A stretch of DNA of 64,000 nucleotides from Escherichia phage St11Ph5 (NC_070873.1); one strand, 5' to 3'; counted from the first letter of the stretch, positions 1 to 16,305 are shown. The notes: generated by a model not told the origin, from the sequence alone. Made by a program: numbers and translations.

Positions 1-83
1 GCTGGGGCTACACCCTTACACTCAACTAGCCCCCCCGGTATGTTGACGGTGTAGCCACTACCCTACCCCACCTTACACGTTAC

Positions 84-103
84 ACATGCTCCGCATGTTA
101 TGG
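84..103 (+). promoter_or_regulatory. Hairpin promoter of N4 vRNAP type (copy 1): stem ACATGC/GCATGT, loop TCC, then TATGG
   Basis: Perfect 6-bp inverted repeat with 3-nt loop; same architecture recurs 4 times upstream of early genes; the template-strand loop would be GGA. Confidence 0.55.
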
Positions 104-140
104 ACATGTCGTCCTATCGTCAACTATTGGAGCTATCATC

Positions 141-464
141 ATGACTACTCAAGCTACTGTACGTATGACCGCAGGAACTTTACTTGGTACTGTTAACTCA
201 GCTGCTACTACTGTTGCAGATACATTCAGTACAGCAACTAAAGCAGTAGGTATGCTTAATTCATATGTAAGTACTATGGCGGAGAAACAAGCCATTCGTA
301 CTAAATTAGAAATGCATACCTTTGTTAATAAACTGGCAGAGGAAACAGCTATGACTGAGACTCTGCGTAAGAAAAGTATCGAGGAATTCTGCAAGGATTC
401 AGAGAACGCTCGAATCTATAACGCAGAATATTCCAAAGTAATTGACATCCTGACTAAAGACTAA
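141..464 (+). CDS. hypothetical early protein (107 aa)
   Basis: ORF follows hairpin promoter, GGAG about 8 nt upstream of ATG, terminator immediately downstream. Confidence 0.6.
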   Translation: MTTQATVRMTAGTLLGTVNSAATTVADTFSTATKAVGMLNSYVSTMAEKQAIRTKLEMHTFVNKLAEETAMTETLRKKSIEEFCKDSENARIYNAEYSKVIDILTKD

Positions 465-471
465 ATCACCT

Positions 472-498
472 AGGAGACTCTTCGGAGTCTCCTGTTTT
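472..498 (+). terminator. intrinsic terminator (AGGAGACTC-TTCG-GAGTCTCCT then GTTTT)
   Basis: 9-bp GC-rich stem, TTCG tetraloop, T-run. Confidence 0.7.
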
Positions 499-554
499 GA
501 ACATTAGATAGATAGTCAAAAGTAGATAACTATCTACTTTAAGGATAGAAAATC

Positions 555-884
555 ATGACTAAATTCCGTTGTATCAAAGGCAATTGTGACATTCCTGTTG
601 GAACAATTATTGAAGGAGAACTTAAGGGTGAATATATAATTCTCACTAAGGATTCTACTATTCTAATGGGAGAAAAGCCTATCTTTGAGAAAGGAGAACC
701 AGTTAAGTTAACTGGTTACGTATGGCAATGGGAAGCCTGTGAAGATAAGGAAGAACTACTGGAACGTTATGAGAAAGCTGTTCGTGCCCATGAAATGCTT
801 GGTGCTCAAGACCCGGAAGATTGGTCTGGAATTGAGGAAGAGTATGAATCTGCTAAGGCAGAATTGCTTAAACGTTTGTCTTAA
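555..884 (+). CDS. hypothetical early protein (109 aa)
   Basis: ORF with AAGGA upstream of ATG. Confidence 0.6.
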   Translation: MTKFRCIKGNCDIPVGTIIEGELKGEYIILTKDSTILMGEKPIFEKGEPVKLTGYVWQWEACEDKEELLERYEKAVRAHEMLGAQDPEDWSGIEEEYESAKAELLKRLS

Positions 885-890
885 AAACCG

Positions 891-909
891 GAAGCTCCGC
901 TTCTATTGG
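891..909 (+). promoter_or_regulatory. Hairpin promoter of N4 vRNAP type (copy 2): GAAGC-TCC-GCTTC then TATTGG
   Basis: Same hairpin, TCC loop and downstream motif as copy 1. Confidence 0.55.
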
Positions 910-937
910 ATACATTTCAACCAATTAAGGAGCATCC

Positions 938-1153
938 ATGAACGTAAAATCTATCCGTATAATTGAGAATTGCTTTAGTGATAAACCAGTAGACCTCAGC
1001 AACTCAAGAAGGTCTACAGATAAAGAATATAAAGAGTTTCTATCCTTACTCGATGAATATCGTATGCAAGGGCATGTTGAATTACATGCCTTTCTGCATA
1101 ACTCAGGCTACTTCATGGACAAACTGGAAGCTAAAACAGGTTGTCCATTCTGA
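938..1153 (+). CDS. hypothetical early protein (71 aa)
   Basis: ORF with AAGGAG upstream of ATG. Confidence 0.6.
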   Translation: MNVKSIRIIENCFSDKPVDLSNSRRSTDKEYKEFLSLLDEYRMQGHVELHAFLHNSGYFMDKLEAKTGCPF

Positions 1154-1159
1154 AAACCA

Positions 1160-1179
1160 AGATGCTCCGCATCTTATGG
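1160..1179 (+). promoter_or_regulatory. Hairpin promoter of N4 vRNAP type (copy 3): AGATGC-TCC-GCATCT then TATGG
   Basis: Same architecture; preceded by AAAACC as in copy 2. Confidence 0.55.
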
Positions 1180-1278
1180 ATGATGTAAATGCATCCACTA
1201 ATCATTGAACTTTTATCCCTTTGTTTGGGTGTTCTCACCGACGAGTTCACCCGTAAATCACATAAATCTGGAGAGTAC

Positions 1279-1662
1279 AAAATGTCTATTCAAAAATTCA
1301 CTTTCGGTCAATCTAACGCTGCTGCTTCTACTGCTAAAGCTGATAAACCAAAAGCTCAGTTCTGGCTGAACATTGGTTATGTAGCCAATGAAGGCTCTGA
1401 TGATGAGAAATTCATCTCACTGCCTACTGGTATTCCACTGGATACTCAGGAACCGCTGCCTACTAATAGCAGCAATGCTGACTTCCGTGCTATGCGTTGT
1501 GCACAAAACGACTTGCTGGAACAGTTAATCCAATATGCTCAGAACCTGGAACCAGGTGAAGAAGGTATCATTAACCTGCAAGTTCAACTTCGTCGTGTGA
1601 AAGCAGAGGCTGCTGACATTCCAGCAGACGAGAATAAATATGCTCGTAAACTGACTTTCTAA
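1279..1662 (+). CDS. hypothetical early protein (127 aa; start moved downstream of the promoter)
   Basis: ATG at 1279 preceded by GGAGAG; the listed ORF start at 1189 would overlap the promoter hairpin. Confidence 0.55.
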
Positions 1663-1671
1663 TCAATTACA

Positions 1672-1700
1672 AGACTCCCTTCGGGGAGTCTTTTATTTTT
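1672..1700 (+). terminator. intrinsic terminator (AGACTCCC-TTCG-GGGAGTCT then T-run)
   Basis: 8-bp stem, TTCG loop, TTTTATTTTT. Confidence 0.75.
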
Positions 1701-1874
1701 AACTAGACGATAAGCTATTTCTACTTTTTGAGTATCTTTAGACGAAGGATACTGAAACAGTAACCAGATAGATATAGATTTATATTAGATGAAGGAGTAA
1801 CCATTATGCGTACATTATGTAACCGTTATAACTCACAGAAGATGATTAATATGTTACAACCTTAGGGCAGTAAG

Positions 1875-2102
1875 ATGTCACTGAATGCTCGTTGGCAGGT
1901 ATCCGTAAAAGATGAAAACGGTCACTGCTATGACCACTTCTTTGTAACTAAACCTACTCGTAAACAAATTCGTAAACTTCACAAAGTACGTAAGCATTAC
2001 TTACTTAGTAAATGCTACGAATGTGGCAAAAGGATAGAACTGGGTAAAGAATTTACCTTAGATGACTTAAACTATGCACACGCTGACTGCCTAAAAGGAT
2101 AA
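1875..2102 (+). CDS. small Cys-containing protein, possible zinc ribbon (75 aa)
   Basis: Paired Cys/His motifs (HCYDH ... CYECG ... HADC). Confidence 0.5.
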   Translation: MSLNARWQVSVKDENGHCYDHFFVTKPTRKQIRKLHKVRKHYLLSKCYECGKRIELGKEFTLDDLNYAHADCLKG

Positions 2103-2106
2103 GACT

Positions 2107-2325
2107 ATGTTGGACTTCATTGCGTTTGTAATACTCTGCTATGTGCTATATCGCCTACGTGGTTACATCCTCAATGGAGCCAAGTGGATAATTACTAAGC
2201 TGGTACTTATCTGTAAGTTACCAGTTGTATTAGTTAAGTGTTTGTTTGCTTCCATCATAGCTAAAGAGGTGCGTAAACAACTATGGGCTAAGGAAGCAGA
2301 AGACTATGTTAAGAGGAACCAGTGA
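2107..2325 (+). CDS. small hydrophobic (membrane) protein (72 aa)
   Basis: ORF with hydrophobic N-terminal segment. Confidence 0.45.
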   Translation: MLDFIAFVILCYVLYRLRGYILNGAKWIITKLVLICKLPVVLVKCLFASIIAKEVRKQLWAKEAEDYVKRNQ

Positions 2326-2471
2326 TGAATTATTCAGAATTGTGGCTTAAGTTTTATGAAGATTGGCTTAGTGCTGTATCTGGTAGACGCACCGAAGGTG
2401 ATATGAACCGGGCAAAGGAATTTGCAGATAATTGTATAAAGTCACTGAAGGAATCGGATGATGTTCACTGA
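2325..2471 (+). CDS. small ORF (48 aa), below the ORF-track cutoff
   Basis: ATG overlaps the upstream stop (TGATG); fills an otherwise empty plus-strand gap. Confidence 0.3.
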   Translation: MNYSELWLKFYEDWLSAVSGRRTEGDMNRAKEFADNCIKSLKESDDVH

Positions 2472-2634
2472 CATAGAATCTGCTATTGAAGAAGCTATGT
2501 ATCGTATGACCAGTGGTCCTCAAATAAGACACTATGGTCTGGTACAGAAAGGACACCTCATTGCTGTACGTATTGTACGTAACAGTAACCCTCAACGTTT
2601 TATGTGGACAACTAAATCATGCGTAAGTCATTAA
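2458..2634 (+). CDS. small ORF (58 aa), below the ORF-track cutoff
   Basis: ATG overlapping the previous ORF end; same strand and packing as neighbours. Confidence 0.3.
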   Translation: MMFTDIESAIEEAMYRMTSGPQIRHYGLVQKGHLIAVRIVRNSNPQRFMWTTKSCVSH

Positions 2635-2636
2635 TT

Positions 2637-2750
2637 ATGGGAACCAAAGAAGACGTACAGAAGATGAAAGAACGTCTAGCTGCTAAGAAACAAACGTCTG
2701 AACCTGTACGTCGTATCATAACCTTCAATCATCCAATCTTAGGAAACTAA
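2637..2750 (+). CDS. small ORF (37 aa)
   Basis: ATG 3 nt after previous stop; weak support. Confidence 0.2.
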   Translation: MGTKEDVQKMKERLAAKKQTSEPVRRIITFNHPILGN

Positions 2751-2752
2751 TC

Positions 2753-2965
2753 ATGTACTTTATAATCTTTATAGTATTGCTGTACCTTAACATTTGGCTA
2801 ACTAATGTAGCTGGTAATATTACTAAAACTTTTACTGCTAATAATGATGTCAGAGGTTTTGCAATATTTGGTTATGTTACTGCATTAACCAAGGGATTGA
2901 GCATAGGCTACGGCTTATGGTTCATATACTATTGTGTAGTCAATTTCCCATATTCATTTATATGA
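2753..2965 (+). CDS. small membrane protein (70 aa)
   Basis: Two hydrophobic segments in translation. Confidence 0.45.
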   Translation: MYFIIFIVLLYLNIWLTNVAGNITKTFTANNDVRGFAIFGYVTALTKGLSIGYGLWFIYYCVVNFPYSFI

Positions 2966-3025
2966 ACTGGCCTATATCAATAGCCATGTTTGTACTATTA
3001 ACATACGGTGCATTAGTAGAACTGG

Positions 3026-3056
3026 GAGTCCTCCATTAGGAGGGCTTCTATTTTTT
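3026..3056 (+). terminator. intrinsic terminator (stem around ATTA loop, then CTATTTTTT)
   Basis: 9-bp stem with G-U pairs plus T-run. Confidence 0.6.
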
Positions 3057-3103
3057 ATTCTTGAATAATTAGATATGTATTTAAATAGGAGAAATAACCT
3101 TGA

Positions 3104-3414
3104 ATGAAATTGTTTGTATACTTCCTCATTCAGCTAAGATAGCTGACCGGAATATACGTATCCATTTACCATTCCCATTAAGCAATCCATTCACTCGTAA
3201 TGAAAGAACCACAGTAGAAGATGTAGAGGTAGCTTATGAAGCTTACCTTCGTAATCGTCTTATTAGTGGTGATAAGCTAATTACAGCAGAGATGGAAAGG
3301 ATTGCATCCTTTGTAACGGATAGTACAGGTAAACCTGTTGGCTTAATTGGTACTGAATCTGACGTTAATGTTATTCGTAAAATATTACTGGAGGCACTCG
3401 GTGAACAATCTTAG
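3104..3414 (+). CDS. hypothetical protein (103 aa)
   Basis: ATG at 3104 preceded by AGGAG. Confidence 0.5.
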
Positions 3415-3646
3415 TGATGTCATCATAGATAAAACAATATTAGTGAATCCCAAAGGGTATGCCTGGTTCATGCTAAAGCATACCCGTAAGGTATATGTTA
3501 GAAAAGTATATATACGTAACTTTGGTAAGTTATCTTACAGAGAAGTACGTATTAATAATGAGATGTACTTTCTAGATGAGTCAGTGATTATCAAATCAAC
3601 CGAAGACAGAAAAGCCCCTTACTTTAACTATTACGGATTCAACTAA
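3401..3646 (+). CDS. hypothetical protein (81 aa), GTG start proposed
   Basis: GGAGG 10 nt upstream of in-frame GTG at 3401; the listed ATG at 3347 would overlap the upstream gene by 68 nt. Confidence 0.4.
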   Translation: MNNLSDVIIDKTILVNPKGYAWFMLKHTRKVYVRKVYIRNFGKLSYREVRINNEMYFLDESVIIKSTEDRKAPYFNYYGFN

Positions 3647-3647
3647 A

Positions 3648-3869
3648 ATGATGTACTCAACTGATTATGGTGTTTGCCCTGTATGTAACAAACGTAAAGG
3701 AGTCGCTAATCATAAGAAGTGTAGTCGTATCCTACAGAAACGACGGAACCAGGAAGAATGGGCTAAGGTATTGGAAAATCAGCATAAAGATGAGTTCAAG
3801 CAGATGGCTGTTAAGGCATCTACTCAGCTTATCCGTCGTACTAACTTCATAGAAGGTTATCAGAGATGA
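3648..3869 (+). CDS. small zinc-ribbon-like protein (73 aa)
   Basis: CPVC ... HKKC motif. Confidence 0.5.
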   Translation: MMYSTDYGVCPVCNKRKGVANHKKCSRILQKRRNQEEWAKVLENQHKDEFKQMAVKASTQLIRRTNFIEGYQR

Positions 3870-4222
3870 AACTAATCGTAGCTGGTGGAAGAGACTTCGT
3901 AGATACCAATCGTATGATTGAGGAACTACAGAAGTTAGTAAATTCAGGGAATATACCTGAATGTCCAGAATTAGTATGTGGCATGGTTCGTGGAGCAGAT
4001 ATATTAGCTTTCTATTTATGGAAATCTGCAAATATGCAGATACATGTATTCCGTGCTGAATGGGATGTCTATGGCAAATCTGCTGGATTCCGCAGAAATA
4101 AAGAGATGGGTGAATTCGCAGATGCTGCTGTATGTTTCTGGGATGGTAATTCCAAAGGAACCAAGCACATGATTGATATCATGCAGAGACTTAATAAACC
4201 CGTATACATCGTAAGGTACTAA
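3866..4222 (+). CDS. SLOG-type (DUF2493/YpsA-like) Rossmann-fold protein (118 aa)
   Basis: MKLIVAGGRDF N-terminal strand-Gly motif, GxVRGAD, conserved Phe-Trp-Asp-Gly-x-Ser-x-Gly-Thr near the C-terminus; by-eye resemblance only. Confidence 0.5.
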   Translation: MKLIVAGGRDFVDTNRMIEELQKLVNSGNIPECPELVCGMVRGADILAFYLWKSANMQIHVFRAEWDVYGKSAGFRRNKEMGEFADAAVCFWDGNSKGTKHMIDIMQRLNKPVYIVRY

Positions 4223-4480
4223 ATGATTATTACATATCCTACCTGTAGACCATTCAATTACATGGGGCAAACAATTGCAATACCTTTATGGGTTAAATAT
4301 GTTGCCCTGTTACCACGTACATATACTAGCAATAACTCTTCTCTTATGGGTTTTGCAAGAAAGCCTAAACTAACTGCCGAAGGTACTTGGGTATCTAAAG
4401 GAAGACAGGAAGAGATTGGTATTTGTAATTATGTGCCTGAAGATGACAAAACTTATTTAACAATGGAGAAGGTGAAGTGA
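4223..4480 (+). CDS. hypothetical protein (85 aa)
   Basis: ORF in operon-like string with start/stop overlap. Confidence 0.45.
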   Translation: MIITYPTCRPFNYMGQTIAIPLWVKYVALLPRTYTSNNSSLMGFARKPKLTAEGTWVSKGRQEEIGICNYVPEDDKTYLTMEKVK

Positions 4481-4791
4481 AAACTATTCTAGTAGTACAT
4501 GATTCTACATTTACTGATGTAGATAAGATGATGCGTAATATTGATTATGTATCTCAGACAAGCCAAGCATTCAATGAAGAGTTTACTCTGTACTGTAATG
4601 CCGAATCTCCACTGGTTCCTATTCTTAAGGAGTCAGGTCTACCCTTCTCTACAGAAAACTTTCCGGAAGAACCAGACTATGTAATCTCATTCATCTATGA
4701 CTTACATGATGGTTCTGAAACTAGTGAATTAGCTATGAACCAGTGGCGTAGTAAACGTCCTGTGTTCGCATTTCAGGTACTTAAACCATGA
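4477..4791 (+). CDS. hypothetical protein (104 aa), GTG start overlapping upstream stop
   Basis: GTGA overlap with previous stop; GGAGAAGG upstream. Confidence 0.45.
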   Translation: MKTILVVHDSTFTDVDKMMRNIDYVSQTSQAFNEEFTLYCNAESPLVPILKESGLPFSTENFPEEPDYVISFIYDLHDGSETSELAMNQWRSKRPVFAFQVLKP

Positions 4792-5168
4792 AGATTATGT
4801 CATTAGGCGATGACACCAATGCTTTACTTGGTGTATCTGCATGTCCAATTATTATTGTTAATAAACATCACGGTAAATCCGGTGAGTATATTGGACGTGG
4901 TTCACCATTAGGTAATCCATTCGTTATTGGTAAAGACGGTTCGAGAGAACAGGTTATAGCCAAGTATCGAGTATGGCTTAATGAGCAAATCATGAGAAAT
5001 AATCCAGTTGTATTGGATGAACTTAATCGTCTTGGTAATAAAGCCATTGACGAGAAAGGCTTAGCCTTACAGTGCTTCTGTTATCCGAAACCATGTCATG
5101 GTGAAGTTATTAAAGAGAAACTAGTGAAGGCTATGTATAACTATTTTGTGGAGAATCCTAATGGATAA
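4788..5168 (+). CDS. DUF4326-like protein (126 aa)
   Basis: YIGRGSPLGNPF and CYPKPCHG motifs resemble the DUF4326 signature; by-eye. Confidence 0.45.
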   Translation: MKIMSLGDDTNALLGVSACPIIIVNKHHGKSGEYIGRGSPLGNPFVIGKDGSREQVIAKYRVWLNEQIMRNNPVVLDELNRLGNKAIDEKGLALQCFCYPKPCHGEVIKEKLVKAMYNYFVENPNG

Positions 5169-5346
5169 ACAATGCAAATGTGGTAAAGGCCATGTATCTC
5201 AATGGGATGGTAAATGTGGTCATTGCCGAACCAAGAAGGAACAACGTGACCTTGAGTATGCTCTTACTTATTTAGAAGTAACCCGTCACTACAACAGTAT
5301 GACCACACACGATGCTTATACTTACAACAGAGAGGCATGTAAATGA
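5146..5346 (+). CDS. small Cys-rich protein (66 aa)
   Basis: CKCGKGH ... CGHC motif. Confidence 0.45.
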   Translation: MWRILMDKQCKCGKGHVSQWDGKCGHCRTKKEQRDLEYALTYLEVTRHYNSMTTHDAYTYNREACK

Positions 5347-5693
5347 AAGAAATCTTAGTATTCACTACTAATACACTTGGGCAACATACCAATGCTGCTG
5401 CCAAATTAGCTTATAAGAAGCATGGTGCTCGTTGGGGTATGGCCTATGGTCATTATGGTAATAGCTTTGCCATTCCAATAAAGGATGGTAATGGTAACCG
5501 AATTAAAGAAGGTGCTATCTATGGCTTCATTGAAGGCTTTATTGCCTATGCATCATCTAATCCACAGTGGGACTTTAAAGTCGTGAGTAATGACTATCTG
5601 GACCCATACCAATTCATTAATGTAACGGGCAATGTACTGTTACCAGAAGCATGGCGTAAACACTTAGGTGATGCTTACAACTACTGGAGCTAA
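5343..5693 (+). CDS. hypothetical protein (116 aa)
   Basis: ORF with ATGA overlap to the previous gene; Gly-rich motifs; no family recognised with confidence. Confidence 0.5.
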   Translation: MKEILVFTTNTLGQHTNAAAKLAYKKHGARWGMAYGHYGNSFAIPIKDGNGNRIKEGAIYGFIEGFIAYASSNPQWDFKVVSNDYLDPYQFINVTGNVLLPEAWRKHLGDAYNYWS

Positions 5694-5695
5694 TA

Positions 5696-5956
5696 ATGAC
5701 GTATGAAGAATTATGGTCTGCTCAAGTCAGAGCCAGAGCACTCACACGACATGACATCTATTGTGCATTACAGAACGAATTAAAGAGTCGTACTAAGCTG
5801 GGTCACATATCTGGCTTAGTTAAGATACCTATGACTAGCCTAGTCTGGCCTTACCAGAAGAAAAGTAATGAGTTTAATGGTAATGGTCTGCATGTACGTA
5901 TCGACTACATTGGTAATGAAAATAATATTCGTATTACCTTTTGGACTAAACGCTAG
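5696..5956 (+). CDS. hypothetical protein (86 aa)
   Basis: ORF 2 nt after previous stop. Confidence 0.5.
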   Translation: MTYEELWSAQVRARALTRHDIYCALQNELKSRTKLGHISGLVKIPMTSLVWPYQKKSNEFNGNGLHVRIDYIGNENNIRITFWTKR

Positions 5957-5961
5957 GTAAT

Positions 5962-5981
5962 AGCTGCTCCGCAGCTTTTGG
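5962..5981 (+). promoter_or_regulatory. Hairpin promoter of N4 vRNAP type (copy 4): AGCTGC-TCC-GCAGCT then TTTGG, upstream of the RNAPII genes
   Basis: Same hairpin/loop/downstream motif as copies 1-3. Confidence 0.55.
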
Positions 5982-6009
5982 TTATTAATCATATTTAGGA
6001 GAATAAGCG

Positions 6010-6828
6010 ATGTACTCATCTATTGAACATCAGAAGCGACTTGAAATCCTTTTCAACAAAAATCAATTACTCCCTCGCATGAGGAAGGAATTCGAGGACT
6101 CCGAAGAAATTGACTTTAAAGCTTTTGCTGCCTATTTAGAAATTGATTATAAGCTGCTCATTGATGCAATGGTGCAGATTGCCCTACATAAACGTGCTGA
6201 CATCCAAACTATGATTGGCTCTCTCATGAGTCACTCAGATGATGCTCAGTACATCGCTGACTGTCTGTATAAGATGGCAGAGAATGACTGCTTCAACTAT
6301 GACCCTACCATCGACAAGTTTGGTGTTATTTATGAGATTAGTGAAGATGTACAGATGGAACTGGAAGCATTCCAGTATCCATTACCTATCGTAAGTGCTC
6401 CTAAACCTGTTAAGTGTAACCGTGATACTGGTTACTACGAGAGCAGAGGTAGCATCATCCTCAAGAAGAACCATCATGAGATGGATGTCTGTCTTGACCA
6501 CATCAACCGCATGAATAACCAACGTCTCTGTATTAACTGGGACGTTGCTAACTATGTAAAAGACTCTCGTCCTAACATGGATAAACCTAAAGAAGGTGAA
6601 ACCCGTCAGGACTATGAGAAACGTGTTAAAGCCTTTGAGAAGTACAGTCGTACAGCTAAGGAAGTAATGGAGTTAGTGACCAAAGAAGGTAATAACTTCT
6701 CTTTGGCTCACAAATACGACAAGCGTGGGCGTACCTATGCCTGTGGCTACCACATCAACTATCAGGGAACCAGTTACAACAAAGCTGTACTGGAGTTCGC
6801 TGATAAGGAGTTAGTAAATGAAGACTAA
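6010..6828 (+). CDS. phage RNA polymerase II, N-terminal-type subunit (T7-like RNAP, split; 272 aa)
   Basis: YDKRGRTYACGYHINYQG resembles the T7 RNAP DWRGRVY...NPQG region; followed by the catalytic subunit. Confidence 0.7.
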   Translation: MYSSIEHQKRLEILFNKNQLLPRMRKEFEDSEEIDFKAFAAYLEIDYKLLIDAMVQIALHKRADIQTMIGSLMSHSDDAQYIADCLYKMAENDCFNYDPTIDKFGVIYEISEDVQMELEAFQYPLPIVSAPKPVKCNRDTGYYESRGSIILKKNHHEMDVCLDHINRMNNQRLCINWDVANYVKDSRPNMDKPKEGETRQDYEKRVKAFEKYSRTAKEVMELVTKEGNNFSLAHKYDKRGRTYACGYHINYQGTSYNKAVLEFADKELVNED

Positions 6829-7036
6829 CATTGGCTCCTATGAACTATGGGTTAATGAAGAGTGTGTCTACTCAGGTACATATGTGAAGTGCTTATACTT
6901 TGAGAAGCTTTACAAGCTTCAAAACCCTAAGAGTAAAACCATTATTTATAAACTATCTGCCGACGTAGTAACTGGCTAATCCATCCAATAAGCAGGCTCT
7001 CCATAGTGGGGAGCCAAGAAGCAAAAGGAACATAAA

Positions 7037-8254
7037 ATGCAACTGTTAACCGCTCGTGAATACCTGAAAGTAGATATCGCTAATAACTATGGCTTAGATA
7101 AGAAGACATGGGATGAGCGTATTGCCTGGTTTGATGAGAACGAAGCTAACCTGCTTAATCTGGTAGATGAAGCTGAAGATTCTGCTCTGTTCTTTGCTGG
7201 TGTAAACGCATGGAAAGACATGAAAGCAGGTAAGCCTATTGGTTATGCCGTAGCTCTTGATGCTACATCATCAGGCTTGCAGTTACTGGCTTGCCTGACT
7301 GGTGACCGCTCTGCTGCTGAATTGTGTAACGTAGTTAACTACATGGGTGAGAATGGTAAGCCATTACGTCGTGATGCTTATACAGTTATCTATCACAAGA
7401 TGCTGGACATCCTTGGTGAAGCATCACGTATTAAACGTAGTGATACTAAGCAGGCAGTTATGACTGCATTCTACGGCTCAGAAGCCAAGCCTAAAGAAGT
7501 ATTCGGTGAAGGTATTCGTCTCAAGACTTTTGAGAATGTAATGGAAACTGTTGCTAGTGGTCCTTGGGCACTTAACAAGTTCTTACTGCAATGTGGTAAT
7601 CCAGATGCTAACCGTTATATATGGGTACTCCCTGACAACTTCCATGCTGTCATTAAAGTCATGATTCCTGAAGTACAGACTGTTAACTTCTTAGGTAAGC
7701 CATTCGACATCACTCGTATGGTTCAGGGTACTGAAGAGAAGACACGTATGCTCTCTGCTAACATCACTCACTCTATTGATGGGATGGTGGTACGTGAGAT
7801 GCTGCGTCGTTGTAACTTCGACCGTGACTTAGTGGAAGCTGTGCGAGAACTCTGCGATGAAGGTCCATCAGAATATGGGGAGATTGCAGGTAATCTGGAG
7901 AAGGTACAGGAATTGTGGAGCCACTATGAGAAATCCGGCTTCTTATCCTTATCCATTCTGGATTATCTTGACCCATGTACTATTGCTTATGTAGACCGTC
8001 AGGTAGTAGCAGATATGATTGACACCATGCCTAAGAAGCCATTCCCTGTAATGACTGTACATGACTGCTTCCGTTGCCATCCTAACTACGGTAATGACCT
8101 ACGTCGTCAATACAATCAGATTCTGTCTGACATTGCTAAGAGTGACTTACTGGGCTTCATCCTGTCTCAGGTACTGGGACAAGAGTTCTCTGCTGGTAAG
8201 CTGGATGACAGCCTCTGGCAGGACATTCTTGAAACAGACTATGCATTAAGTTAA
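7037..8254 (+). CDS. phage RNA polymerase II, catalytic subunit (T7-like single-subunit RNAP palm; 405 aa)
   Basis: Motif A DATSSGLQ, motif B RSDTKQAVMTAFYGS, motif C TVHDCF. Confidence 0.85.
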   Translation: MQLLTAREYLKVDIANNYGLDKKTWDERIAWFDENEANLLNLVDEAEDSALFFAGVNAWKDMKAGKPIGYAVALDATSSGLQLLACLTGDRSAAELCNVVNYMGENGKPLRRDAYTVIYHKMLDILGEASRIKRSDTKQAVMTAFYGSEAKPKEVFGEGIRLKTFENVMETVASGPWALNKFLLQCGNPDANRYIWVLPDNFHAVIKVMIPEVQTVNFLGKPFDITRMVQGTEEKTRMLSANITHSIDGMVVREMLRRCNFDRDLVEAVRELCDEGPSEYGEIAGNLEKVQELWSHYEKSGFLSLSILDYLDPCTIAYVDRQVVADMIDTMPKKPFPVMTVHDCFRCHPNYGNDLRRQYNQILSDIAKSDLLGFILSQVLGQEFSAGKLDDSLWQDILETDYALS

Positions 8255-8270
8255 TAAACTAGCCTCATTC

Positions 8271-8306
8271 CTTCGGGAGTGGGGCTTATTTTTTCTTTGG
8301 AGGTAG
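8271..8306 (+). terminator. intrinsic terminator after the RNAPII genes
   Basis: 11-bp stem with TTCG loop followed by TTATTTTTTCTTT. Confidence 0.7.
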
Positions 8307-8311
8307 CAACT

Positions 8312-8494
8312 ATGCTAATCACTTTTGAAGTAATCTTTCAGCTAATACTGATAGTTTTATCTATACTGGTTCTGTCTACAATAGTTCATTCCCACAAGTC
8401 TAAGTTTGCCTACTGCTACTATGGGGCATACTCACTAGGTTGCTTTGTAATGGCAGGATGGATAGCTTTTACTATCTACTGTGTAAACAACTAA
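8312..8494 (+). CDS. small membrane protein (60 aa)
   Basis: ATG at 8312 after GGAGG; the listed start at 8279 lies inside the terminator hairpin. Confidence 0.4.
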   Translation: MLITFEVIFQLILIVLSILVLSTIVHSHKSKFAYCYYGAYSLGCFVMAGWIAFTIYCVNN

Positions 8495-8511
8495 CCCTCT
8501 TAACGGAGGGT
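8485..8511 (+). terminator. intrinsic terminator (AACCCTC ... GAGGGTT then TATTTTTT)
   Basis: 7-bp stem plus T-run. Confidence 0.6.
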
Positions 8512-8567
8512 TTATTTTTTACATGTCATGTATACTAATCCTGCTATTTACTTATGAGGAAATTGAT

Positions 8568-9401
8568 ATGCCAACTTTGAAAGTAGGTTTTAACAAAACC
8601 ACTAATGTCGCAACTGTACTGGATGCAGGTGGTTCTATCCCGGGTGGTTCCGTAGAAATAGGTACTTTTGTACACCCGGATGCTACCTACCCTGATAGTT
8701 TAGTTATCTTTCATGGTGTTCGTGATCTGCTGTATAAATGCTCTGCTAAAAACCCTGCTGAAGAGGGTTTCTGGCCTAACAACATTGTGGATATGCAGTC
8801 TATCTCTATTGATATGAAAGCTACTCCACGACTGACTATTGCTACCAAACTGCCTCGTGTAGTATCTGCTATCGAAGGTGAAGACATCAACTGGCATGTT
8901 GATGTAGCAGGTGGTAAAGCACCATTTACTTATAAATGGCAATTCAAAGCTAATACTGCTGGTGCAGCATTCGCTGATATTAGCTCCAGCACTAACCCAT
9001 CCGCTGCTACTGCAACATTGACCCTTAATGATGTAACAGCTGCTTCCGCTGGTACTTATAAAGTGATTGCTACTGATGCTAATGGAACCACGGTAGAAGA
9101 TGAGTCGTTGCTGGCTGTAGGCTACTACGAAGCAAGCTCCCTGGTAGCTACTCCTGATTCACTGGCTCTGTCTGTTGCTGCTGATATTGCTGCTGGTAAG
9201 ACCGTAACAATTGTTGCTATGCCTGTTGGTTCTTCTGCTGGTACTTTGTCTATCAAGACCGCTCCAGATTCTGCTCGTGCTACGGCTACCATTGCTGGTA
9301 ATGTACTGACAGTTAAGCCAGTGGCTGCTGGTGATGCTACTTCTGTAGTAGTTACCAACGGTACTGTCGATGTAACTATCTCTGTTACTGTTGCAGAGTA
9401 A
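8568..9401 (+). CDS. Ig-like domain protein, likely capsid decoration protein (N4 gp17-like position; 277 aa)
   Basis: Ala/Thr/Val-rich repeats with Big_2/Ig-like character; sits immediately after the RNAPII genes; ATG at 8568 after GAGGA. Confidence 0.55.
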   Translation: MPTLKVGFNKTTNVATVLDAGGSIPGGSVEIGTFVHPDATYPDSLVIFHGVRDLLYKCSAKNPAEEGFWPNNIVDMQSISIDMKATPRLTIATKLPRVVSAIEGEDINWHVDVAGGKAPFTYKWQFKANTAGAAFADISSSTNPSAATATLTLNDVTAASAGTYKVIATDANGTTVEDESLLAVGYYEASSLVATPDSLALSVAADIAAGKTVTIVAMPVGSSAGTLSIKTAPDSARATATIAGNVLTVKPVAAGDATSVVVTNGTVDVTISVTVAE

Positions 9402-9423
9402 GAGTATTTCTTTTTGTGGTTAT

Positions 9424-9449
9424 AGCCCTCCTTAGCGAGGGCTTTCTTG
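9424..9449 (+). terminator. stem-loop, weak terminator
   Basis: AGCCCTC-CTTAGC-GAGGGCT followed by TTCTTG. Confidence 0.4.
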
Positions 9450-9468
9450 TATCTATAGGAGAGTAAAA

Positions 9469-9783
9469 ATGGCGCAAAAATTGCGTGTATGGCACATTCC
9501 CCAAGTGCCAATGAAGGCATTTCAAGTAGAGACTAATAGTCTTCAGGAAGCTGTTAAGATTAAGAATGCGTTAGCAGATTATGATCTATTCCAATATGAG
9601 AACAATGTCAAAGGCGATTATGCTAATGCTAACGGTATTGAGATGTGGGATGAGACTATCTCCGATCAAGAACTAGTGGAGATGGGTTTAGAAGACCGTT
9701 GGGTAGATTGGTATATTGAAACTGAAGATGGTTTCTTTGATGACCCAGAAGAGTATCTGAATTATCTAATCAAGCAAGTATGA
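9469..9783 (+). CDS. acidic hypothetical protein (104 aa)
   Basis: ORF after AGGAGAG; strongly acidic, Trp-containing. Confidence 0.55.
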   Translation: MAQKLRVWHIPQVPMKAFQVETNSLQEAVKIKNALADYDLFQYENNVKGDYANANGIEMWDETISDQELVEMGLEDRWVDWYIETEDGFFDDPEEYLNYLIKQV

Positions 9784-9832
9784 TTGCTTTATTTGGGGTT
9801 ATAAACCCTGAAATGAAACCCTCAAGTTTGAC

Positions 9833-9862
9833 CTCCCTATTAAAGGGAGGTCTTTTTTTGAC
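9833..9862 (+). terminator. intrinsic terminator (GACCTCCC ... GGGAGGTC then TTTTTTT)
   Basis: 8-bp stem plus 7 T. Confidence 0.7.
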
Positions 9863-9884
9863 TTAAACATTCTGGAGCCAGGAA

Positions 9885-10097
9885 ATGTATAAAGAGATTG
9901 CATTCTTCTCATTCTTGCTAGGTGGTTTAATAGGTGCAGGATTTGTAGCTATTTCTAATACCTACTTTGGTTCTACTCCAAATTCTGTAACACAAACCCT
10001 CAAGCATGAATGTGAATTAAATATCCCTCGTAATCAAAACTGTGTAATGCAGTTCGTACCGGAGAAAAATGAATATCCACAATCTACATTTGGTTGA
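9885..10097 (+). CDS. small membrane protein (70 aa)
   Basis: Hydrophobic N-terminal segment; GGAG upstream. Confidence 0.45.
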   Translation: MYKEIAFFSFLLGGLIGAGFVAISNTYFGSTPNSVTQTLKHECELNIPRNQNCVMQFVPEKNEYPQSTFG

Positions 10098-10329
10098 GAA
10101 ACTGTATGAAGAATACAATGACAACCGACAGCAATTAGCTAGTTTGAAGAAGTCACCACATATGGTGAAAGTATCATTCAATGGTACGGATTTAGGACCG
10201 CAAGCTCGTACAAGAATACTTCCTGAACTGCTGTCATTTTATCAAAAGAGGATTGCTGTCTTAGAAAAACGCTTTGAGCATTTATGTGTAGATTTATCAC
10301 CACTCCCAGATGAAGGGGAAGATGAGTGA
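10069..10329 (+). CDS. hypothetical protein (86 aa)
   Basis: ORF; start uncertain (overlaps upstream by 29 nt). Confidence 0.4.
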   Translation: MNIHNLHLVEKLYEEYNDNRQQLASLKKSPHMVKVSFNGTDLGPQARTRILPELLSFYQKRIAVLEKRFEHLCVDLSPLPDEGEDE

Positions 10330-10511
10330 AATTAACCCAGTCCCAAGCAATCTTCCTTCGTATGGTTCAAGGTGGCTCTGCCACCAGCAACCGTAATAAC
10401 AAAACCGCACAGTCCCTTAAGAAGCTGGGCTTAGTTCAGTTCAATGCTGGTCTTGGGTGGTCATTAACCCTTATCGGTGTACTTAAACTCAATGAAATGA
10501 AAGGTAACTAA
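10326..10511 (+). CDS. hypothetical protein (61 aa), GTG start
   Basis: Weak; GTG start overlapping previous stop. Confidence 0.3.
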   Translation: MKLTQSQAIFLRMVQGGSATSNRNNKTAQSLKKLGLVQFNAGLGWSLTLIGVLKLNEMKGN

Positions 10512-10841
10512 ATGAAAACTTTACTTAAAGGTATTGCAGTAGCTGCACTGATAGCTTTAGCTCCAAATGCACAAGCAGTTAAACCAGAACCAATTCTGGA
10601 AGGTGCTCAGGCTTATCTGGATGACACTCGTGATGCATTCGGACAAGGATTCTTCATGGGCAGTATGATCTCTTACATCGAGAACACTAATAACTGTGTT
10701 CCAGATGGTATGAAGTATTCAGACATTCTGCCTAAGATTGCCAAAGTAGTTATTTATGACTCTGCAATCCTCAAACTGAAGAATACATCTCAAATTGTCG
10801 TGTACTCCGTACACAAGGCATATCCCTGCACTAAATCTTAA
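10512..10841 (+). CDS. secreted/periplasmic protein with N-terminal signal peptide (109 aa)
   Basis: MKTLLKGIAVAALIALAPNAQA signal-peptide-like leader, AQA cleavage motif. Confidence 0.55.
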   Translation: MKTLLKGIAVAALIALAPNAQAVKPEPILEGAQAYLDDTRDAFGQGFFMGSMISYIENTNNCVPDGMKYSDILPKIAKVVIYDSAILKLKNTSQIVVYSVHKAYPCTKS

Positions 10842-10875
10842 TCAGTAATCCCATTAGCTTTAGGAGAGTAAGTAA

Positions 10876-11928
10876 ATGGCAAGCATTGACTCCTTGACTG
10901 TATGTAATTCACGTCAAGCTCGTAACTTTATTATCCGTGCTCTGAAAGCAGGTAACGTACCGTTCCTGACTTCATCACCAGGTATGGGTAAATCTGCAAT
11001 TATTCGTTCTATTGCAGAAGAATTTGGTATGAAGCTGATAGACCATCGTCTGTCTACTTCTGCTCCGGAAGACCTTTCTGGCTTACCATTCCGTAATGGC
11101 GACCGTGCAGAATTTATTCCTTTCGCTGACCTATTCCCTATTGAAGGGGATGAAGTACCGGAAGGTTATAATGGCTGGCTCCTGTTCCTTGATGAGTTCA
11201 ACTCAGCTAAGAAAGAAGTGGTAGCTGCTGCATACAAGCTGATTCTCGACCGTATGACTGGTCAGAAAAAGCTTCATCCTAATGTGATGATTGTCTGTGC
11301 TGGTAACAAAGCCACTGACCGTGCCATTGTTAACCCACTAGGTACTGCAATGCAGTCTCGTGTGGTTCACTTCGAAATGGAACTTAACTTCGACATCTTT
11401 GTTGAAGATGTAATGATTCCTCAGCAATGGGATGAACGTCTGGTTGCATTCTTACATGCTAATCCTGGTTATCTGCATGACTTCGACCCAGCACATAAGA
11501 ATAAAACATTCTGTTGCCCTCGTACCTGGGACTTTGTTAACAAAGACCTCAAGAACCTGCCAGAAGGTGCTCTGCCTGATGAAGATTCTCTTTACTACGC
11601 AGGACACGTTACTGCTGGTAAAGCTACAGAGTTTGTTCAGTTTACTCAGGTATACAATCGTATCATTACGATTGAGAAGGTGGTCAAAGACCCATTGGGC
11701 TGTGCACTACCCGATGATAACAACCTGTGTTGGGCTACCGTTAACCACCTGGCTAACAAAACTACTGAAGAAAACTTCGCTGATGTTCTTCAGTACATTG
11801 AACGCTTTAAAACGTTCACCCATAAGATTCTGTACTTCCGTACAGTAGGCAGAGCATTACCAGAACTACAGGCTACCCCTGAATGGCGTAAGGCTGCTGC
11901 TAATATCTCTCGTTACATTCACGGATAA
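10876..11928 (+). CDS. AAA+ ATPase, MoxR-like (350 aa)
   Basis: Walker A SPGMGKSA, Walker B LLFLDEFN, MoxR-like spacing. Confidence 0.8.
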   Translation: MASIDSLTVCNSRQARNFIIRALKAGNVPFLTSSPGMGKSAIIRSIAEEFGMKLIDHRLSTSAPEDLSGLPFRNGDRAEFIPFADLFPIEGDEVPEGYNGWLLFLDEFNSAKKEVVAAAYKLILDRMTGQKKLHPNVMIVCAGNKATDRAIVNPLGTAMQSRVVHFEMELNFDIFVEDVMIPQQWDERLVAFLHANPGYLHDFDPAHKNKTFCCPRTWDFVNKDLKNLPEGALPDEDSLYYAGHVTAGKATEFVQFTQVYNRIITIEKVVKDPLGCALPDDNNLCWATVNHLANKTTEENFADVLQYIERFKTFTHKILYFRTVGRALPELQATPEWRKAAANISRYIHG

Positions 11929-11935
11929 TCACAAC

Positions 11936-13111
11936 ATGAACCAATTTCCTCAGCACACACTTAGTGATGAACAACTCATGCGTGAGTATGACCGTATTCA
12001 GGCGCAGGCGTTTCTCGGACGCAGTGCTGCGTTCTTTGGTTCATTGCTGTGTAGTCTTAAGTTCTCATGGAAACGTGAGGATTGCCCCACTGCATGTACT
12101 GATGGGATAGAACTCCATTTCAACCCAGACTTCTTTATCTGGATGTGTCCAGATGCAAGAGAAACAGTATTAATGCATGAACTATGGCATGTAGCATATC
12201 TACATGACATCCGTCGTGGAAGCCGTGACCCGGAAATCTGGAACCAGGCTTGTGACCACTTCATTAACCTTCAGTTAGAAGAAGATGGTTACAAGTTCAC
12301 TGGCATTGACAAAGGCATTTGCAAAGACCCTCAATATAAAGGATGGGTCGAAGAAGACATCTACGATGACCTGATGAAGAACCCTCAGAAAAGGCAGAAG
12401 CCCTCGGGGGGTGCTGGAGCAGGTCTTGCTGGCGACATGAAATCCCCCACTTCGGGGCAGTCCCAGGGTGCTGTTGTCAACAACGTAGTACGTGCAATGC
12501 AAAGCCAGAAAATGGCTGGTGGACAGATGCCCGGTAAGGGTGCTGGTCGTATGGAAGAGGTTATTACCCAATTCCTTAAACCAGTGGTTCCCTGGCAGGA
12601 AGTTCTGATGAACTTCTTTACCGACATTGATGACACACACTATACGTGGGCCAGACCTAATCGTCGTTACACTGATATCTATCTACCTTCCCTGGAAGAT
12701 GATGAAGGACGTTTACGTCACTTAGCCTACTTTGAGGATGTGTCTGGTTCTATTAGTAGTGCTGACTCTCTGCGTTTTAACTCAGAGGTTGCCTACGTTA
12801 AGAGCCAATTCAATCCTAAGAAGATGTCCTTAATTACCTTCGACGATATTATCCAGGAAGAGATAGACATCACTGAAGAAGATACTTTTGAAGAGATTAA
12901 GATTACAGGTCGTGGTGGTACAAGCCTTGTGCCTGTACGAGATTGGATTATTAAGAATAAACCAACCGCTGCAATCATATTCTCCGATATGTATGTTCGC
13001 CCAATGGAAGAATTGCCATTTGATATCCCTATCATCTGGTGTGTTCTGAATAATCCTAATGCTACCGTACCTTTTGGGGAGGTAGTTCATATCCCTAAAG
13101 GAATGAAATAA
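11936..13111 (+). CDS. vWA-domain protein with N-terminal zincin-like HExxH domain (391 aa)
   Basis: HELWH motif, DVSGSISS MIDAS-like motif; directly downstream of the MoxR ATPase. Confidence 0.7.
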   Translation: MNQFPQHTLSDEQLMREYDRIQAQAFLGRSAAFFGSLLCSLKFSWKREDCPTACTDGIELHFNPDFFIWMCPDARETVLMHELWHVAYLHDIRRGSRDPEIWNQACDHFINLQLEEDGYKFTGIDKGICKDPQYKGWVEEDIYDDLMKNPQKRQKPSGGAGAGLAGDMKSPTSGQSQGAVVNNVVRAMQSQKMAGGQMPGKGAGRMEEVITQFLKPVVPWQEVLMNFFTDIDDTHYTWARPNRRYTDIYLPSLEDDEGRLRHLAYFEDVSGSISSADSLRFNSEVAYVKSQFNPKKMSLITFDDIIQEEIDITEEDTFEEIKITGRGGTSLVPVRDWIIKNKPTAAIIFSDMYVRPMEELPFDIPIIWCVLNNPNATVPFGEVVHIPKGMK

Positions 13112-13617
13112 TGGTTGTTAATGGTAATTCTCTATATCGTTCTTCTCAGTTGCTAGATGTCCCTGACCGTAAGATATCCGAGCATGGTGTAAGCTACGGA
13201 TTGGGTGAAGCTGGTTATGATATTCGTATCAAACAGGATATTACCTTCTATCGCTTACTTGGGTTGATTCCAATGGTGAAGGTCGTTGATGGAAATCAAG
13301 TATCACGACATTTTGGTAAGTTCACATTGGCTTCAGCAATTGAGAAGTTCAACATGTCTCCGTCCTGTGTAGCTATCGTTCACGATAAGTCTACATGGGC
13401 AAGACGTGCATTATCCGTATTTAATACAGTAATCGAACCAGGGTGGAAAGGTTGGCTTACTTTAGAGCTTGCCTACCATGGTCGTAAGAAATTGCATATC
13501 CCGGCTGGTTCTGGGATAGCTCAAGTATTATTTCATCTGGTTCAGGAACCTGCTAATTACAATGGCAAGTACATGAACCAGGAAAACAAACCAGTAGCTG
13601 CAAGAAGCAGTAAATAA
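13111..13617 (+). CDS. dCTP deaminase/dUTPase-fold protein (168 aa)
   Basis: GVSYGLGEAGYDIRI and EPGWKGWLTLEL motifs resemble dCTP deaminase. Confidence 0.55.
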   Translation: MVVNGNSLYRSSQLLDVPDRKISEHGVSYGLGEAGYDIRIKQDITFYRLLGLIPMVKVVDGNQVSRHFGKFTLASAIEKFNMSPSCVAIVHDKSTWARRALSVFNTVIEPGWKGWLTLELAYHGRKKLHIPAGSGIAQVLFHLVQEPANYNGKYMNQENKPVAARSSK

Positions 13618-13626
13618 GGAAACAAC

Positions 13627-13836
13627 ATGTCAGTATTTCAAGTAACTCATGCAACCTCAGATGTACGCTTAACCATTAATGCTGCAAATGTAATTGCAGT
13701 AGAACAGATTCCACAGTCTGACCATGCACGCGTCATATTTGTAGATAATAACTATATAGAAACCAAAGAAACCTATCGTTCAGTACGTAATTACCTGAAG
13801 AAAGCACTTGCTTCTGCAAGCAAAGACGCTGAGTAA
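13627..13836 (+). CDS. hypothetical protein (69 aa)
   Basis: ORF with start near upstream stop. Confidence 0.45.
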   Translation: MSVFQVTHATSDVRLTINAANVIAVEQIPQSDHARVIFVDNNYIETKETYRSVRNYLKKALASASKDAE

Positions 13837-13909
13837 GTAGCTGCCTAAATAGCCCAGCATTGTTGGGCTATTTGTGAAGAAACTAACTCAACCCCACATA
13901 GGAACCATC

Positions 13910-14161
13910 ATGGAATCTTTAGCAGCAATCCTTGTTATGTTGTTTGTATTAGCTGTATACCTTATCCCTACTATCATTGCTTTTGCACGAGGCCATGCCT
14001 CTAAGTGGGGCATTGGTGTGCTAAACATCGTATTAGGTTGGTCACTGGTATTCTGGGTAGTAGCACTGATTTGGGCACTGTCCAATAAAGGAACTACAAT
14101 CGTTAACGTTGGTAGTGGTAACCAGTACAACGTGTCCCAAACGAGCAGTAAAGCAGAGTAA
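13910..14161 (+). CDS. superinfection-immunity (Imm)-like membrane protein (83 aa)
   Basis: IIAFARGH ... NIVLGWSLVFWVVALIWA matches the Imm family pattern; ATG at 13910 after AGGA. Confidence 0.5.
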   Translation: MESLAAILVMLFVLAVYLIPTIIAFARGHASKWGIGVLNIVLGWSLVFWVVALIWALSNKGTTIVNVGSGNQYNVSQTSSKAE

Positions 14162-14234
14162 CTAACCGAAGTATCCCCAAGAGGGTACTTCTGGAAGTTA
14201 CTTCCAGCTCATTGCTTATCCATCTCCTAACCCA

Positions 14235-14262
14235 AGCCCACCTAACCCGTGGGCTTTTTTAT
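14235..14262 (+). terminator. intrinsic terminator (AGCCCAC ... GTGGGCT then TTTTTTATTT)
   Basis: 7-bp stem plus T-run. Confidence 0.7.
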
Positions 14263-14292
14263 TTAAAGGTACTTCTTGTGACAAGTAGACGA

Positions 14293-14656
14293 ATGGTAAG
14301 TCTATCCTACAAGGACTGGACTTCGGTAAGCTGGAACAAACTGCAATGCTTGCTTTAGGTAAAACTATCCATGACCAAGTGGAAAGTGAAATTGAAGCAG
14401 ATATTTATACAAGAATGCAGGTTCTTATTAAGAAAAATGGGTTACTACCAGATCCCTTCATTCATACATTCCCCCAGAACCTCATCTGAAATCTAAGGTA
14501 GACCGAATCATAGATAAGTTCTGGCTTAACCCATGTAAGGATGACACGCAACTTTATCTGGCTCAAATACAAAAGAATCCTCGTACTAAGGATGTATTCA
14601 AAGGCAAGAGCACTACCCATCACTACCCCTGGTATAGAAGAGGTAGTAAATACTAA
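14293..14656 (+). pseudogene. possible frameshifted gene remnant (three short consecutive reading frames)
   Basis: Three abutting short ORFs in three frames, no convincing RBS; the last ends TAATG-coupled to the next gene. Confidence 0.2.
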
Positions 14657-15099
14657 TGCGTATTCCATTCCTAAGAAAAAGAGAACGAAATCCTGTTCTT
14701 TATAATAAAGGCATAGAGGATGAGTATGAACTCAACCGTAAAGCTCGTTCCTACACAACAAAATTATTCATGGGGACTAAAAACCCTGATAGATTATTGG
14801 ACTTTGTTTTTGAACAAGTCTTTATCATATACAGCTTAGCTATGTCTGCTGGTTCACAAGAAGTGAGTGATAAGGCAAGAGATGCTCTCTGTATGCTCCG
14901 TAAAGAGTATGAAGCCCTCATGTATGAAGACTTATACTCCTTTAAAAAAGAAACCGCTGTAGCGTGTTCTGTGGCTCTTACTGAAGGTGTAGCAGTATTA
15001 CAGGAACTACCTCGTAGTGAGTTTAAGCTGGTATACGTTCAGGTTAAGAAAATCACAGAGACGAGAAGTGGTATCACCAACTATCTAAGGTCATTCTAA
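14656..15099 (+). CDS. hypothetical protein (147 aa)
   Basis: ORF, stop overlaps the ThyX-like start. Confidence 0.5.
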   Translation: MRIPFLRKRERNPVLYNKGIEDEYELNRKARSYTTKLFMGTKNPDRLLDFVFEQVFIIYSLAMSAGSQEVSDKARDALCMLRKEYEALMYEDLYSFKKETAVACSVALTEGVAVLQELPRSEFKLVYVQVKKITETRSGITNYLRSF

Positions 15100-16278: not shown

Positions 16279-16305
16279 ACCTAAGACCTCCTCCGGGAGG
16301 TCTTT
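16279..16305 (+). terminator. intrinsic terminator (AGACCTCC-TCCG-GGAGGTCT then TTTTTTT)
   Basis: 8-bp stem plus T-run. Confidence 0.75.

Follow-up and report, generated by a model that had tools for sequence, protein, structure and literature searches.

In coliphage N4, the virion RNA polymerase (vRNAP) transcribes gp1, gp2, gp15 and gp16, and the injected enzyme thus launches RNAPII (PMC13434306). The promoters it uses are conserved from -17 to +1 and carry a GC-rich heptamer that is centred at -11 and flanked by inverted repeats. The conserved stem bases are required, while the non-conserved ones are free to change if the hairpin is kept. [quoted passage not shown] The enzyme recognises template bases -11A/G, -10G, -8G and +1C, with W129, R119 and K114 making contacts to -11 and -10, and D901 and R904 to -9/-10 and -8 (PMC4496689, the N4 RNA polymerase review from which the published determinants used here were taken). 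For many further N4-like phages, promoters of the hairpin kind have been predicted (PMC3715699, PMC6027278). In Klebsiella phage KP8, four putative early promoters have been annotated at 89-110, 962-983, 1225-1246 and 5963-5984 (PMC6950046; MG922974), and in Pseudomonas phage LUZ7 nine early starts were mapped by ONT-cappable-seq (PMC9163698). The present analysis concerns four hairpin sites in a stretch of 64,000 nucleotides (nt) of Escherichia phage St11Ph5 (NC_070873.1), called the window below. Judged by their sequence, these sites are very probably early promoters of the N4 type, read by the virion-packaged RNA polymerase. The evidence computed here consists of sequence determinants, orthology of position, stem covariation and conserved polymerase contact residues.

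The sites were located by reading the window directly and by scanning it for perfect hairpins with 3-nt loops. An initial annotation had listed four hairpin motifs at 84-103, 891-909, 1160-1179 and 5962-5981. All four were recovered where it had placed them, and the stem of the third proved to be one pair longer, with 7 base pairs (bp) beginning at 1159.

84-103 (hairpin 84-98), + strand: copy 1, P1-like; ACATGC-TCC-GCATGT, 6-bp stem, followed by TATGG; loop centre 91.
891-909 (hairpin 891-903), + strand: copy 2, additional; GAAGC-TCC-GCTTC, 5-bp stem, followed by TATTGG; loop centre 897.
1159-1179 (hairpin 1159-1175), + strand: copy 3, P2-like; AAGATGC-TCC-GCATCTT, 7-bp stem, followed by ATGG; loop centre 1167.
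5962-5981 (hairpin 5962-5976), + strand: copy 4, P3-like; AGCTGC-TCC-GCAGCT, 6-bp stem, followed by TTTGG; loop centre 5969.

All four sites are on the + strand and lie within short gaps between + strand open reading frames (ORFs). They share the heptamer GCTCCGC, which is formed by the loop and the two innermost stem pairs and which occurs exactly four times in the 64 kb when both strands are counted. The TCC loop had been described as invariant and is found in every copy, although the fuller invariant part is the heptamer and not the loop alone. Similarly, a fixed T(A/T)TGG flank had been proposed. The GG is in register in all four, and the flank is better stated as GG at 11 and 12 nt past the central loop base, a spacing at which the four sites align without gaps.

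The word AAAACC, which had been noted ahead of two copies, is present at 884-889 and 1153-1158, ahead of copies 2 and 3. In both places it stands directly 3' of the preceding stop codon and 5' of the hairpin. The same word is found upstream of P2-class promoters in pSb-1, L004, L007, L008, L009, Moo19 and KP8 (labels of the form L004 are our own), with the register shifting by one base. On the - strand it appears as a hairpin followed by GGTTTT and was flagged as terminator-like by the terminator scan.

When the loop centre is numbered -11, the template strand reads -12A, -11G, -10G, -9C, -8G and +1C in each of the four sites, and the non-template strand reads -11C, -10C, -8C and +1G. The template loop is 5'-GGA-3' closed by C:G in every case, and the GC-rich heptamer centred at -11 is always GCTCCGC. 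The stems are perfect, with 6, 5, 7 and 6 bp around a 3-nt loop, which is within the 5-7 bp of N4-type promoters. The predicted promoters therefore agree with every published sequence-level determinant of N4 vRNAP promoters. The window also encodes the polymerase of 3601 residues that the initial annotation had reported:

37105-47910, - strand: virion RNA polymerase, 3601 aa; identity to N4 gp50 68% over the whole protein and 73% within the mini-vRNAP domain.

Residues K114, R119, W129, D901 and R904 are all identical between this polymerase and that of N4. The local sequence is conserved, and around D901 and R904 it is identical. It had been suggested that recognition is based on structure rather than on sequence. 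Hairpin shape does count, but the exclusion of sequence was wrong, since the heptamer and the +1/+2 positions are invariant and the N4 enzyme makes base-specific contacts at -11, -10, -8 and +1 in addition to reading the hairpin shape (PMC4496689).

The hairpin scan was also applied to N4 (NC_008720), where it returned three sites corresponding to P1, P2 and P3.

About 90-108 of N4: P1, GTTGC-TTC-GCAAC-TTATGG, upstream of gp1.
557-573 of N4: P2, AAGAAGC-TCC-GCTTCTT-ttGG, upstream of gp2.
4546-4562 of N4: P3, AAGCTGC-TCC-GCAGCTT-ttGG, 41 nt upstream of gp15.

The oligonucleotide of a 2026 cryo-electron microscopy study confirms the identity of the N4 P2 site: it carries the hairpin GAAGC-GGA-GCTTC, to which window 891-903 is the reverse complement (PMC13492108). 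By sequence and placement, copies 1, 3 and 4 are positional orthologues of N4 P1, P2 and P3, and copy 2 is extra.

The arrangement of stem, loop and GG was compared with shuffled sequence. Hairpins that combine a stem of 5 bp or more, a TCC loop and in-register GG numbered 4 in the window, against a mean of 0.076 and a maximum of 2 in 1000 dinucleotide-preserving shuffles. A repeat finder used without prior information returned the four sites as the top direct-repeat family. Furthermore, a covariance model was built from 33 sequences including the four window sites, and copies 1 to 4 scored 35.8, 34.8, 43.2 and 39.8 bits. These scores are partly by construction because the four sites were in the training set, and the informative result is the gap to the next site: beyond the four, the search of the whole window found nothing above 10.9 bits. 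A mismatch-tolerant pattern search of the window gave 11 matches at up to 2 mismatches, against 7.6 expected, so that no additional candidates stood out from chance, and its exact matches were only the four known sites.

A fifth hairpin with a TCC loop, at 10800-10814 (GTGTAC-TCC-GTACAC), was rejected as a promoter. The reasons are its location inside a coding sequence, an A where template -8 should be G, the lack of an in-register GG, and a loop that reads TCA in relatives.

The initial annotation had proposed looking for the motif at equivalent positions in close relatives. This check was run on the early regions of 12 Enquatrovirinae (the window, N4, eight G7C-like IMG/VR contigs, Moo19 and KP8), and the motif is present. 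All 39 instances of GCTCCGC, three to four per genome, were on the early-gene strand and within a perfect hairpin of at least 5 bp. GG occupied +1/+2 in 38 of these sites, the exception being L005:509 with CG. A 31-nt sequence at copy 1 is identical in five relatives, and copy 4 has a counterpart in all 12 genomes. Mimir124, which was outside model building, gave three covariance-model matches of 36-38 bits.

Covariation was evaluated in an ungapped alignment of 33 distinct sites, drawn from the 12 genomes plus one site of Achromobacter phage Axy12 and including N4 P1 (GCTTCGC). The two innermost stem pairs showed no variation. Pairs -15/-7, -16/-6 and -17/-5 each occurred as three or four Watson-Crick types, by way of double substitutions. 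Of the cells, 96.5% were paired, compared with 14-47% when the partner was slid by 1-3 columns, and none of 500 shuffles reached the observed covariation score. The sites had been collected by the heptamer, and every + strand heptamer lies in a hairpin, so the selection bias is small. The claim that the stems differ between copies while the loop and flank are fixed is borne out: the stems covary, and the heptamer and GG are kept across the 12 genomes.

Inverted repeats in intergenic DNA upstream of genes might also be palindromic double-stranded operators for a dimeric regulator of the phage or the host. However, the conserved centre is asymmetric, with TCC on the + strand in all 39 GCTCCGC sites of the 12 genomes and never GGA. 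Moreover, the half-site sequences are not conserved, only their complementarity, which points to a nucleic-acid structure rather than a protein half-site. An operator function is thus extremely unlikely.

It was also considered whether the hairpins could be intrinsic terminators, or RNA stem-loops that end or stabilise upstream transcripts. Each hairpin lies 6-7 nt past a stop codon, and the terminator scan flagged 5962-5976 on the + strand, with TTTTGGTTATT after it, and 891-903 on the reverse strand, where GGTTTTT comes next. However, a T-rich tail is found only at 5962-5976, the other three stems being followed by TATGGACA, TATTGGAT and ATGGATGA with no T-run. Compared with the genuine terminators at 472-493, 1671-1692 and 3023-3050, whose stems have 9-12 bp, hairpins with 5-7 bp and a 3-nt loop are weak. 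Termination has no need for an invariant TCC loop, a heptamer or GG at a fixed distance, and there is no gene upstream of copy 1 to terminate. Additionally, an Rfam search returned no matching family and only sub-threshold chance matches. This explanation is very unlikely, and N4-type early promoters are preferred.

Several observations weigh against the assignment as early promoters. By nearest-neighbour DNA folding, the hairpins are only modestly stable (-4.7 to -5.7 kcal/mol; z-scores between -1.6 and -3.8), and on the template strand of copy 2 a shifted pairing is preferred. In LUZ7, the one N4-like phage for which genome-wide mapping of starts was found, transcription starts 13-14 nt from the hairpin centre instead of 11, and the spacing is therefore not universal in the family (PMC9163698). 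Transcription in St11Ph5 itself is expected by analogy with N4, from which the start sites, the promoter strengths and the dependence on gyrase and E. coli SSB, a dependence known for N4 only, would likewise be extrapolated.

Single-strand DNA folding recovered the hairpin on three of the four template strands and on all four non-template strands. The nearest-neighbour parameters do not model the GNA mini-hairpin or the special stability of the GGA loop. GCGNAGC mini-hairpins are exceptionally stable, the isolated GCGGAGC heptamer having a melting temperature of 73 C, and the class has been noted as an element bound by mini-vRNAP (PMC13037366). The template strand of the window reads 5'-GCGGAGC-3' in all four sites, which is the N = G member of the GCGNAGC / GCGNNAGC DNA mini-hairpins (Hirao; PMC13037366). 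It follows that nearest-neighbour folding underestimates the stability of the template hairpins. The mini-hairpin is a physical motif and not a promoter class, whereas in the window it is found inside a longer stem and is predicted to be read by a polymerase.

The genomic setting of the four sites was then compared with that in N4 and the G7C-like phages. Bases 1-6100 of the window can be aligned over their full length with bases 1-6100 of Escherichia phage vB_EcoP_ShWW44, a Gamaleyavirus (93.6% identity), and about 80 G7C-like phages match the window in part. Because the alignment with ShWW44 runs from base 1, the window starts at a genome end; by these alignments it represents the left end of the genome of an N4-like coliphage of the G7C-like group (Gamaleyavirus). 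The genes and terminator-like elements near the four sites are as follows.

141-464, + strand: gp1 homologue, downstream of copy 1; 66% identity to N4 gp1 by tblastn; phrog_5020.
472-499, + strand: terminator-like hairpin and T-run, 3' of the gp1 homologue; read by eye, and missed by the terminator scan because the T-run is short.
938-1153, + strand: 71-aa ORF between the tandem promoters, downstream of copy 2; 87% identical to Moo19 gp10; phrog_20790.
1189-1662, + strand: gp2 homologue, downstream of copy 3; 66% identity to N4 gp2 over its full length by BLASTP, E = 7e-84; phrog_4099.
1671-1700, + strand: terminator-like hairpin and T-run, 3' of the gp2 homologue; found by the terminator scan.
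6010-6828, + strand: gp15 homologue (RNAPII); 65% identity to N4 gp15; phrog_2166.
7037-8254, + strand: gp16 homologue (RNAPII); 67% identity to N4 gp16; phrog_2051.

N4 gp1 is a cofactor of RNAPII, and N4 gp2 is a cofactor of the same polymerase that binds single-stranded DNA. A small ORF lies between the gp15 and gp16 homologues, and copy 4 ends 34 nt ahead of the gp15-like ORF (6010). The position of copy 4 upstream of the RNAPII genes had been taken to suggest that vRNAP launches RNAPII. The comparison supports this suggestion, which is not a new inference but the established N4 cascade (PMC4496689, PMC13434306).

The long form of the gp2 homologue begins with the ATG at 1189, which is only 11 nt past the predicted start site at 1178 and is not preceded by a Shine-Dalgarno sequence; even so, the N-terminal extension of 31 aa is conserved in N4 gp2. 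A second, shorter product could arise from the internal GGAGAG and the ATG at 1282.

Copy 2 is the site for which a different explanation carries real weight, and it is the only one of the alternatives that does. On this view only three of the four sites would function, as in N4; copy 2 would be a duplicate of P2 that is weak or inactive, and read-through would account for expression of the 71-aa ORF. N4 has three promoters only (PMC4496689), and only three heptamer hairpins are likewise seen in ECBP1 (L002), IME11 (L003), L004 and L009. Of the four copies, copy 2 is the one with the shortest stem (5 bp), it scores lowest with the covariance model, and its template strand has a competing fold. 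On the other hand, the 13 nt of its hairpin do not differ from those of the N4 P2 hairpin of the structural work (PMC13492108), which is bound by mini-vRNAP in solved structures. Copy 2 has GG at +1/+2, followed 30 nt downstream by a ribosome-binding site and ATG. Furthermore, an orthologous promoter has been kept, with compensatory stem changes, in ShWW44, L008, pSb-1, L005 and Moo19, and KP8 has an annotated early promoter in the same slot. In pSb-1, L005 and Moo19 the sequence of this orthologue is G(G)CTGT-TCC-ACAGC(C), which departs from copy 2 at four of the five stem pairs, the loop-closing one among them, and still pairs perfectly. GG is in register there and is followed by the same GGATACATTT leader and the same ORF. 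An inactive copy 2 is accordingly improbable, and an active early promoter at this site is favoured.

The variant heptamer of this orthologue, GTTCCAC (stem GCTGT/ACAGC), was seen at L005:~796-808, L006:~5850-5868 and L010 (Moo19):~3230-3242 with the TCC loop kept. In it, a loop-closing T:A replaces the C:G that the N4 work calls essential for extrusion. An active variant would mean that the N4 model states the loop-closing rule too strictly.

N4 lacks the slot between the tandem promoters, as do several G7C-like genomes. The 71-aa ORFs that occupy it in the window (938-1153) and in KP8 (L011:1004-1219) gave no BLASTP alignment with each other, and the slot looks like an exchangeable, promoter-flanked cassette. 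One may speculate that the G7C-, Moo19- and KP8-like phages follow an early programme of four promoters in place of the three of N4, in which the extra promoter and P2 bracket a small-gene slot exchanged between lineages and the hairpins serve as module boundaries, perhaps as recombination points. This proposal is doubtful as it stands.

A sequence of events modelled on N4 can be proposed for the four promoters. By homology with N4, the left genome end would enter the cell first, together with vRNAP. Supercoiling by host gyrase would extrude each inverted repeat as a cruciform, and host SSB would melt the non-template (TCC) hairpin and leave the template-strand hairpin intact. The template hairpin would survive because the sequence at its core, 5'-GCGGAGC-3', belongs to the GCGNAGC mini-hairpins, which are unusually stable and contain a sheared G:A pair; the stability of this class would let the template hairpin, but not that of the TCC strand, outlast SSB and would account for the strand asymmetry. 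The vRNAP would bind the template hairpin with W129 stacked on -11G and with R119 and K114 bonded to -11G and -10G, and D901 and R904 of the specificity loop would read -9C/-10G and -8G. GTP would be the first nucleotide, placed opposite +1C at a distance of 11 nt from the loop centre. This predicts RNA 5' ends at 102 (copy 1), 908 (copy 2), 1178 (copy 3) and 5980 (copy 4), and each RNA would begin with GG. The products of the four units would be gp1, the 71-aa protein, gp2 and the two RNAPII subunits, that is, machinery for middle transcription. For annotation, these four predicted early starts would delimit the units of early transcription in a G7C-like coliphage; in the nearest deposited record, that of ShWW44, no regulatory features are given.

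Matches resembling sigma-70 promoters are strongly depleted in the first part of the window, with 7 in bases 1-9000 (27.6 +/- 5.4 expected) and 22 in bases 9001-29000 (44.7 +/- 7.3 expected). The depletion is consistent with early and middle genes that do not use the host RNA polymerase. An ORF at 555-884, 3' of the gp1 terminator, has no hairpin promoter of its own. The gap before it, 497-554, contains a perfect 8-bp inverted repeat, AGTAGATA-AC-TATCTACT, at 521-538, and several TAGAT-like words that recur in the gaps 1693-1874 and 3051-3099. The inverted repeat and the TAGAT-like words may be signals for another polymerase or for read-through control.

In the relatives Mimir124 (L019:1-403) and Axy12 (L012:1-433), the P1 hairpin lies within the annotated direct terminal repeat. 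By analogy, a second copy of P1, directed outward, is probably present at the right end of the packaged genome. The window ends at 64 kb, and only one copy of the terminal repeat is included in the records of ShWW44 and N4.

Among the more distant schitoviruses scanned (Rexella, Meara and Pylas), there were no GCTCCGC hairpins; LUZ7 was outside that scan. Erwinia phage Rexella (L013) has ACTTGC-TTCC-GCAAGT-TATGG at 526-557, upstream of gp2, a site of the same design except that the loop has 4 nt. On the template strand it reads GCGGAAGC, in agreement with the other class of mini-hairpin, GCGNNAGC, and the covariance model found it at 25 bits.

LUZ7 resembles the window in having hairpins with stems of 4 bp or more and a conserved loop of 3 nt, in starting with G (as predicted for the window), and in placing tandem strong promoters ahead of the gene for a transcription cofactor that binds single-stranded DNA, but its sequence core differs. 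The resemblance to KP8 is closer. All four KP8 promoters contain GCTCCGC, and their layout is almost coordinate-for-coordinate that of the window: gp1 and the RNAPII genes are each preceded by a single promoter, and gp2 by two in tandem, spaced about 265 nt. However, the KP8 promoters are predicted only, from similarity to N4. Moreover, the KP8 ORF between the tandem promoters is unrelated to that of the window, and an extra small ORF lies between the fourth promoter and the gp15 homologue.

Relative to N4, the window has four sites rather than three, and the extra one precedes a 71-aa ORF that N4 lacks. The P1 loop is TTC in N4 and TCC in the window, and the stem sequences differ. The N4 promoters have been mapped in vivo and in vitro, and the P2 complex has been solved by crystallography and cryo-electron microscopy, whereas the window sites are predicted from sequence. 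Rifampicin-resistant initiation at +1 in vivo and transcription of single-stranded template by purified vRNAP in vitro are further marks of the N4-type class. The likeness to P1-P3 includes the 5-7 bp stem, the 3-nt loop, GG at +1/+2 and the same template bases from -12 to -8 and at +1. GCTCCGC is on the non-template strand of N4 P2 and P3, with GCTTCGC in N4 P1. The same genes, gp1, gp2 and gp15/16, lie downstream, and the cognate polymerase is 73% identical in its catalytic domain. There is little new biology in this agreement. The class is well characterised, and the layout was already annotated in KP8. Two modest points go beyond N4, namely a conserved fourth promoter before a variable small ORF and, in some relatives, a compensatory change of the loop-closing pair; otherwise the N4 paradigm transfers unchanged to Gamaleyavirus.

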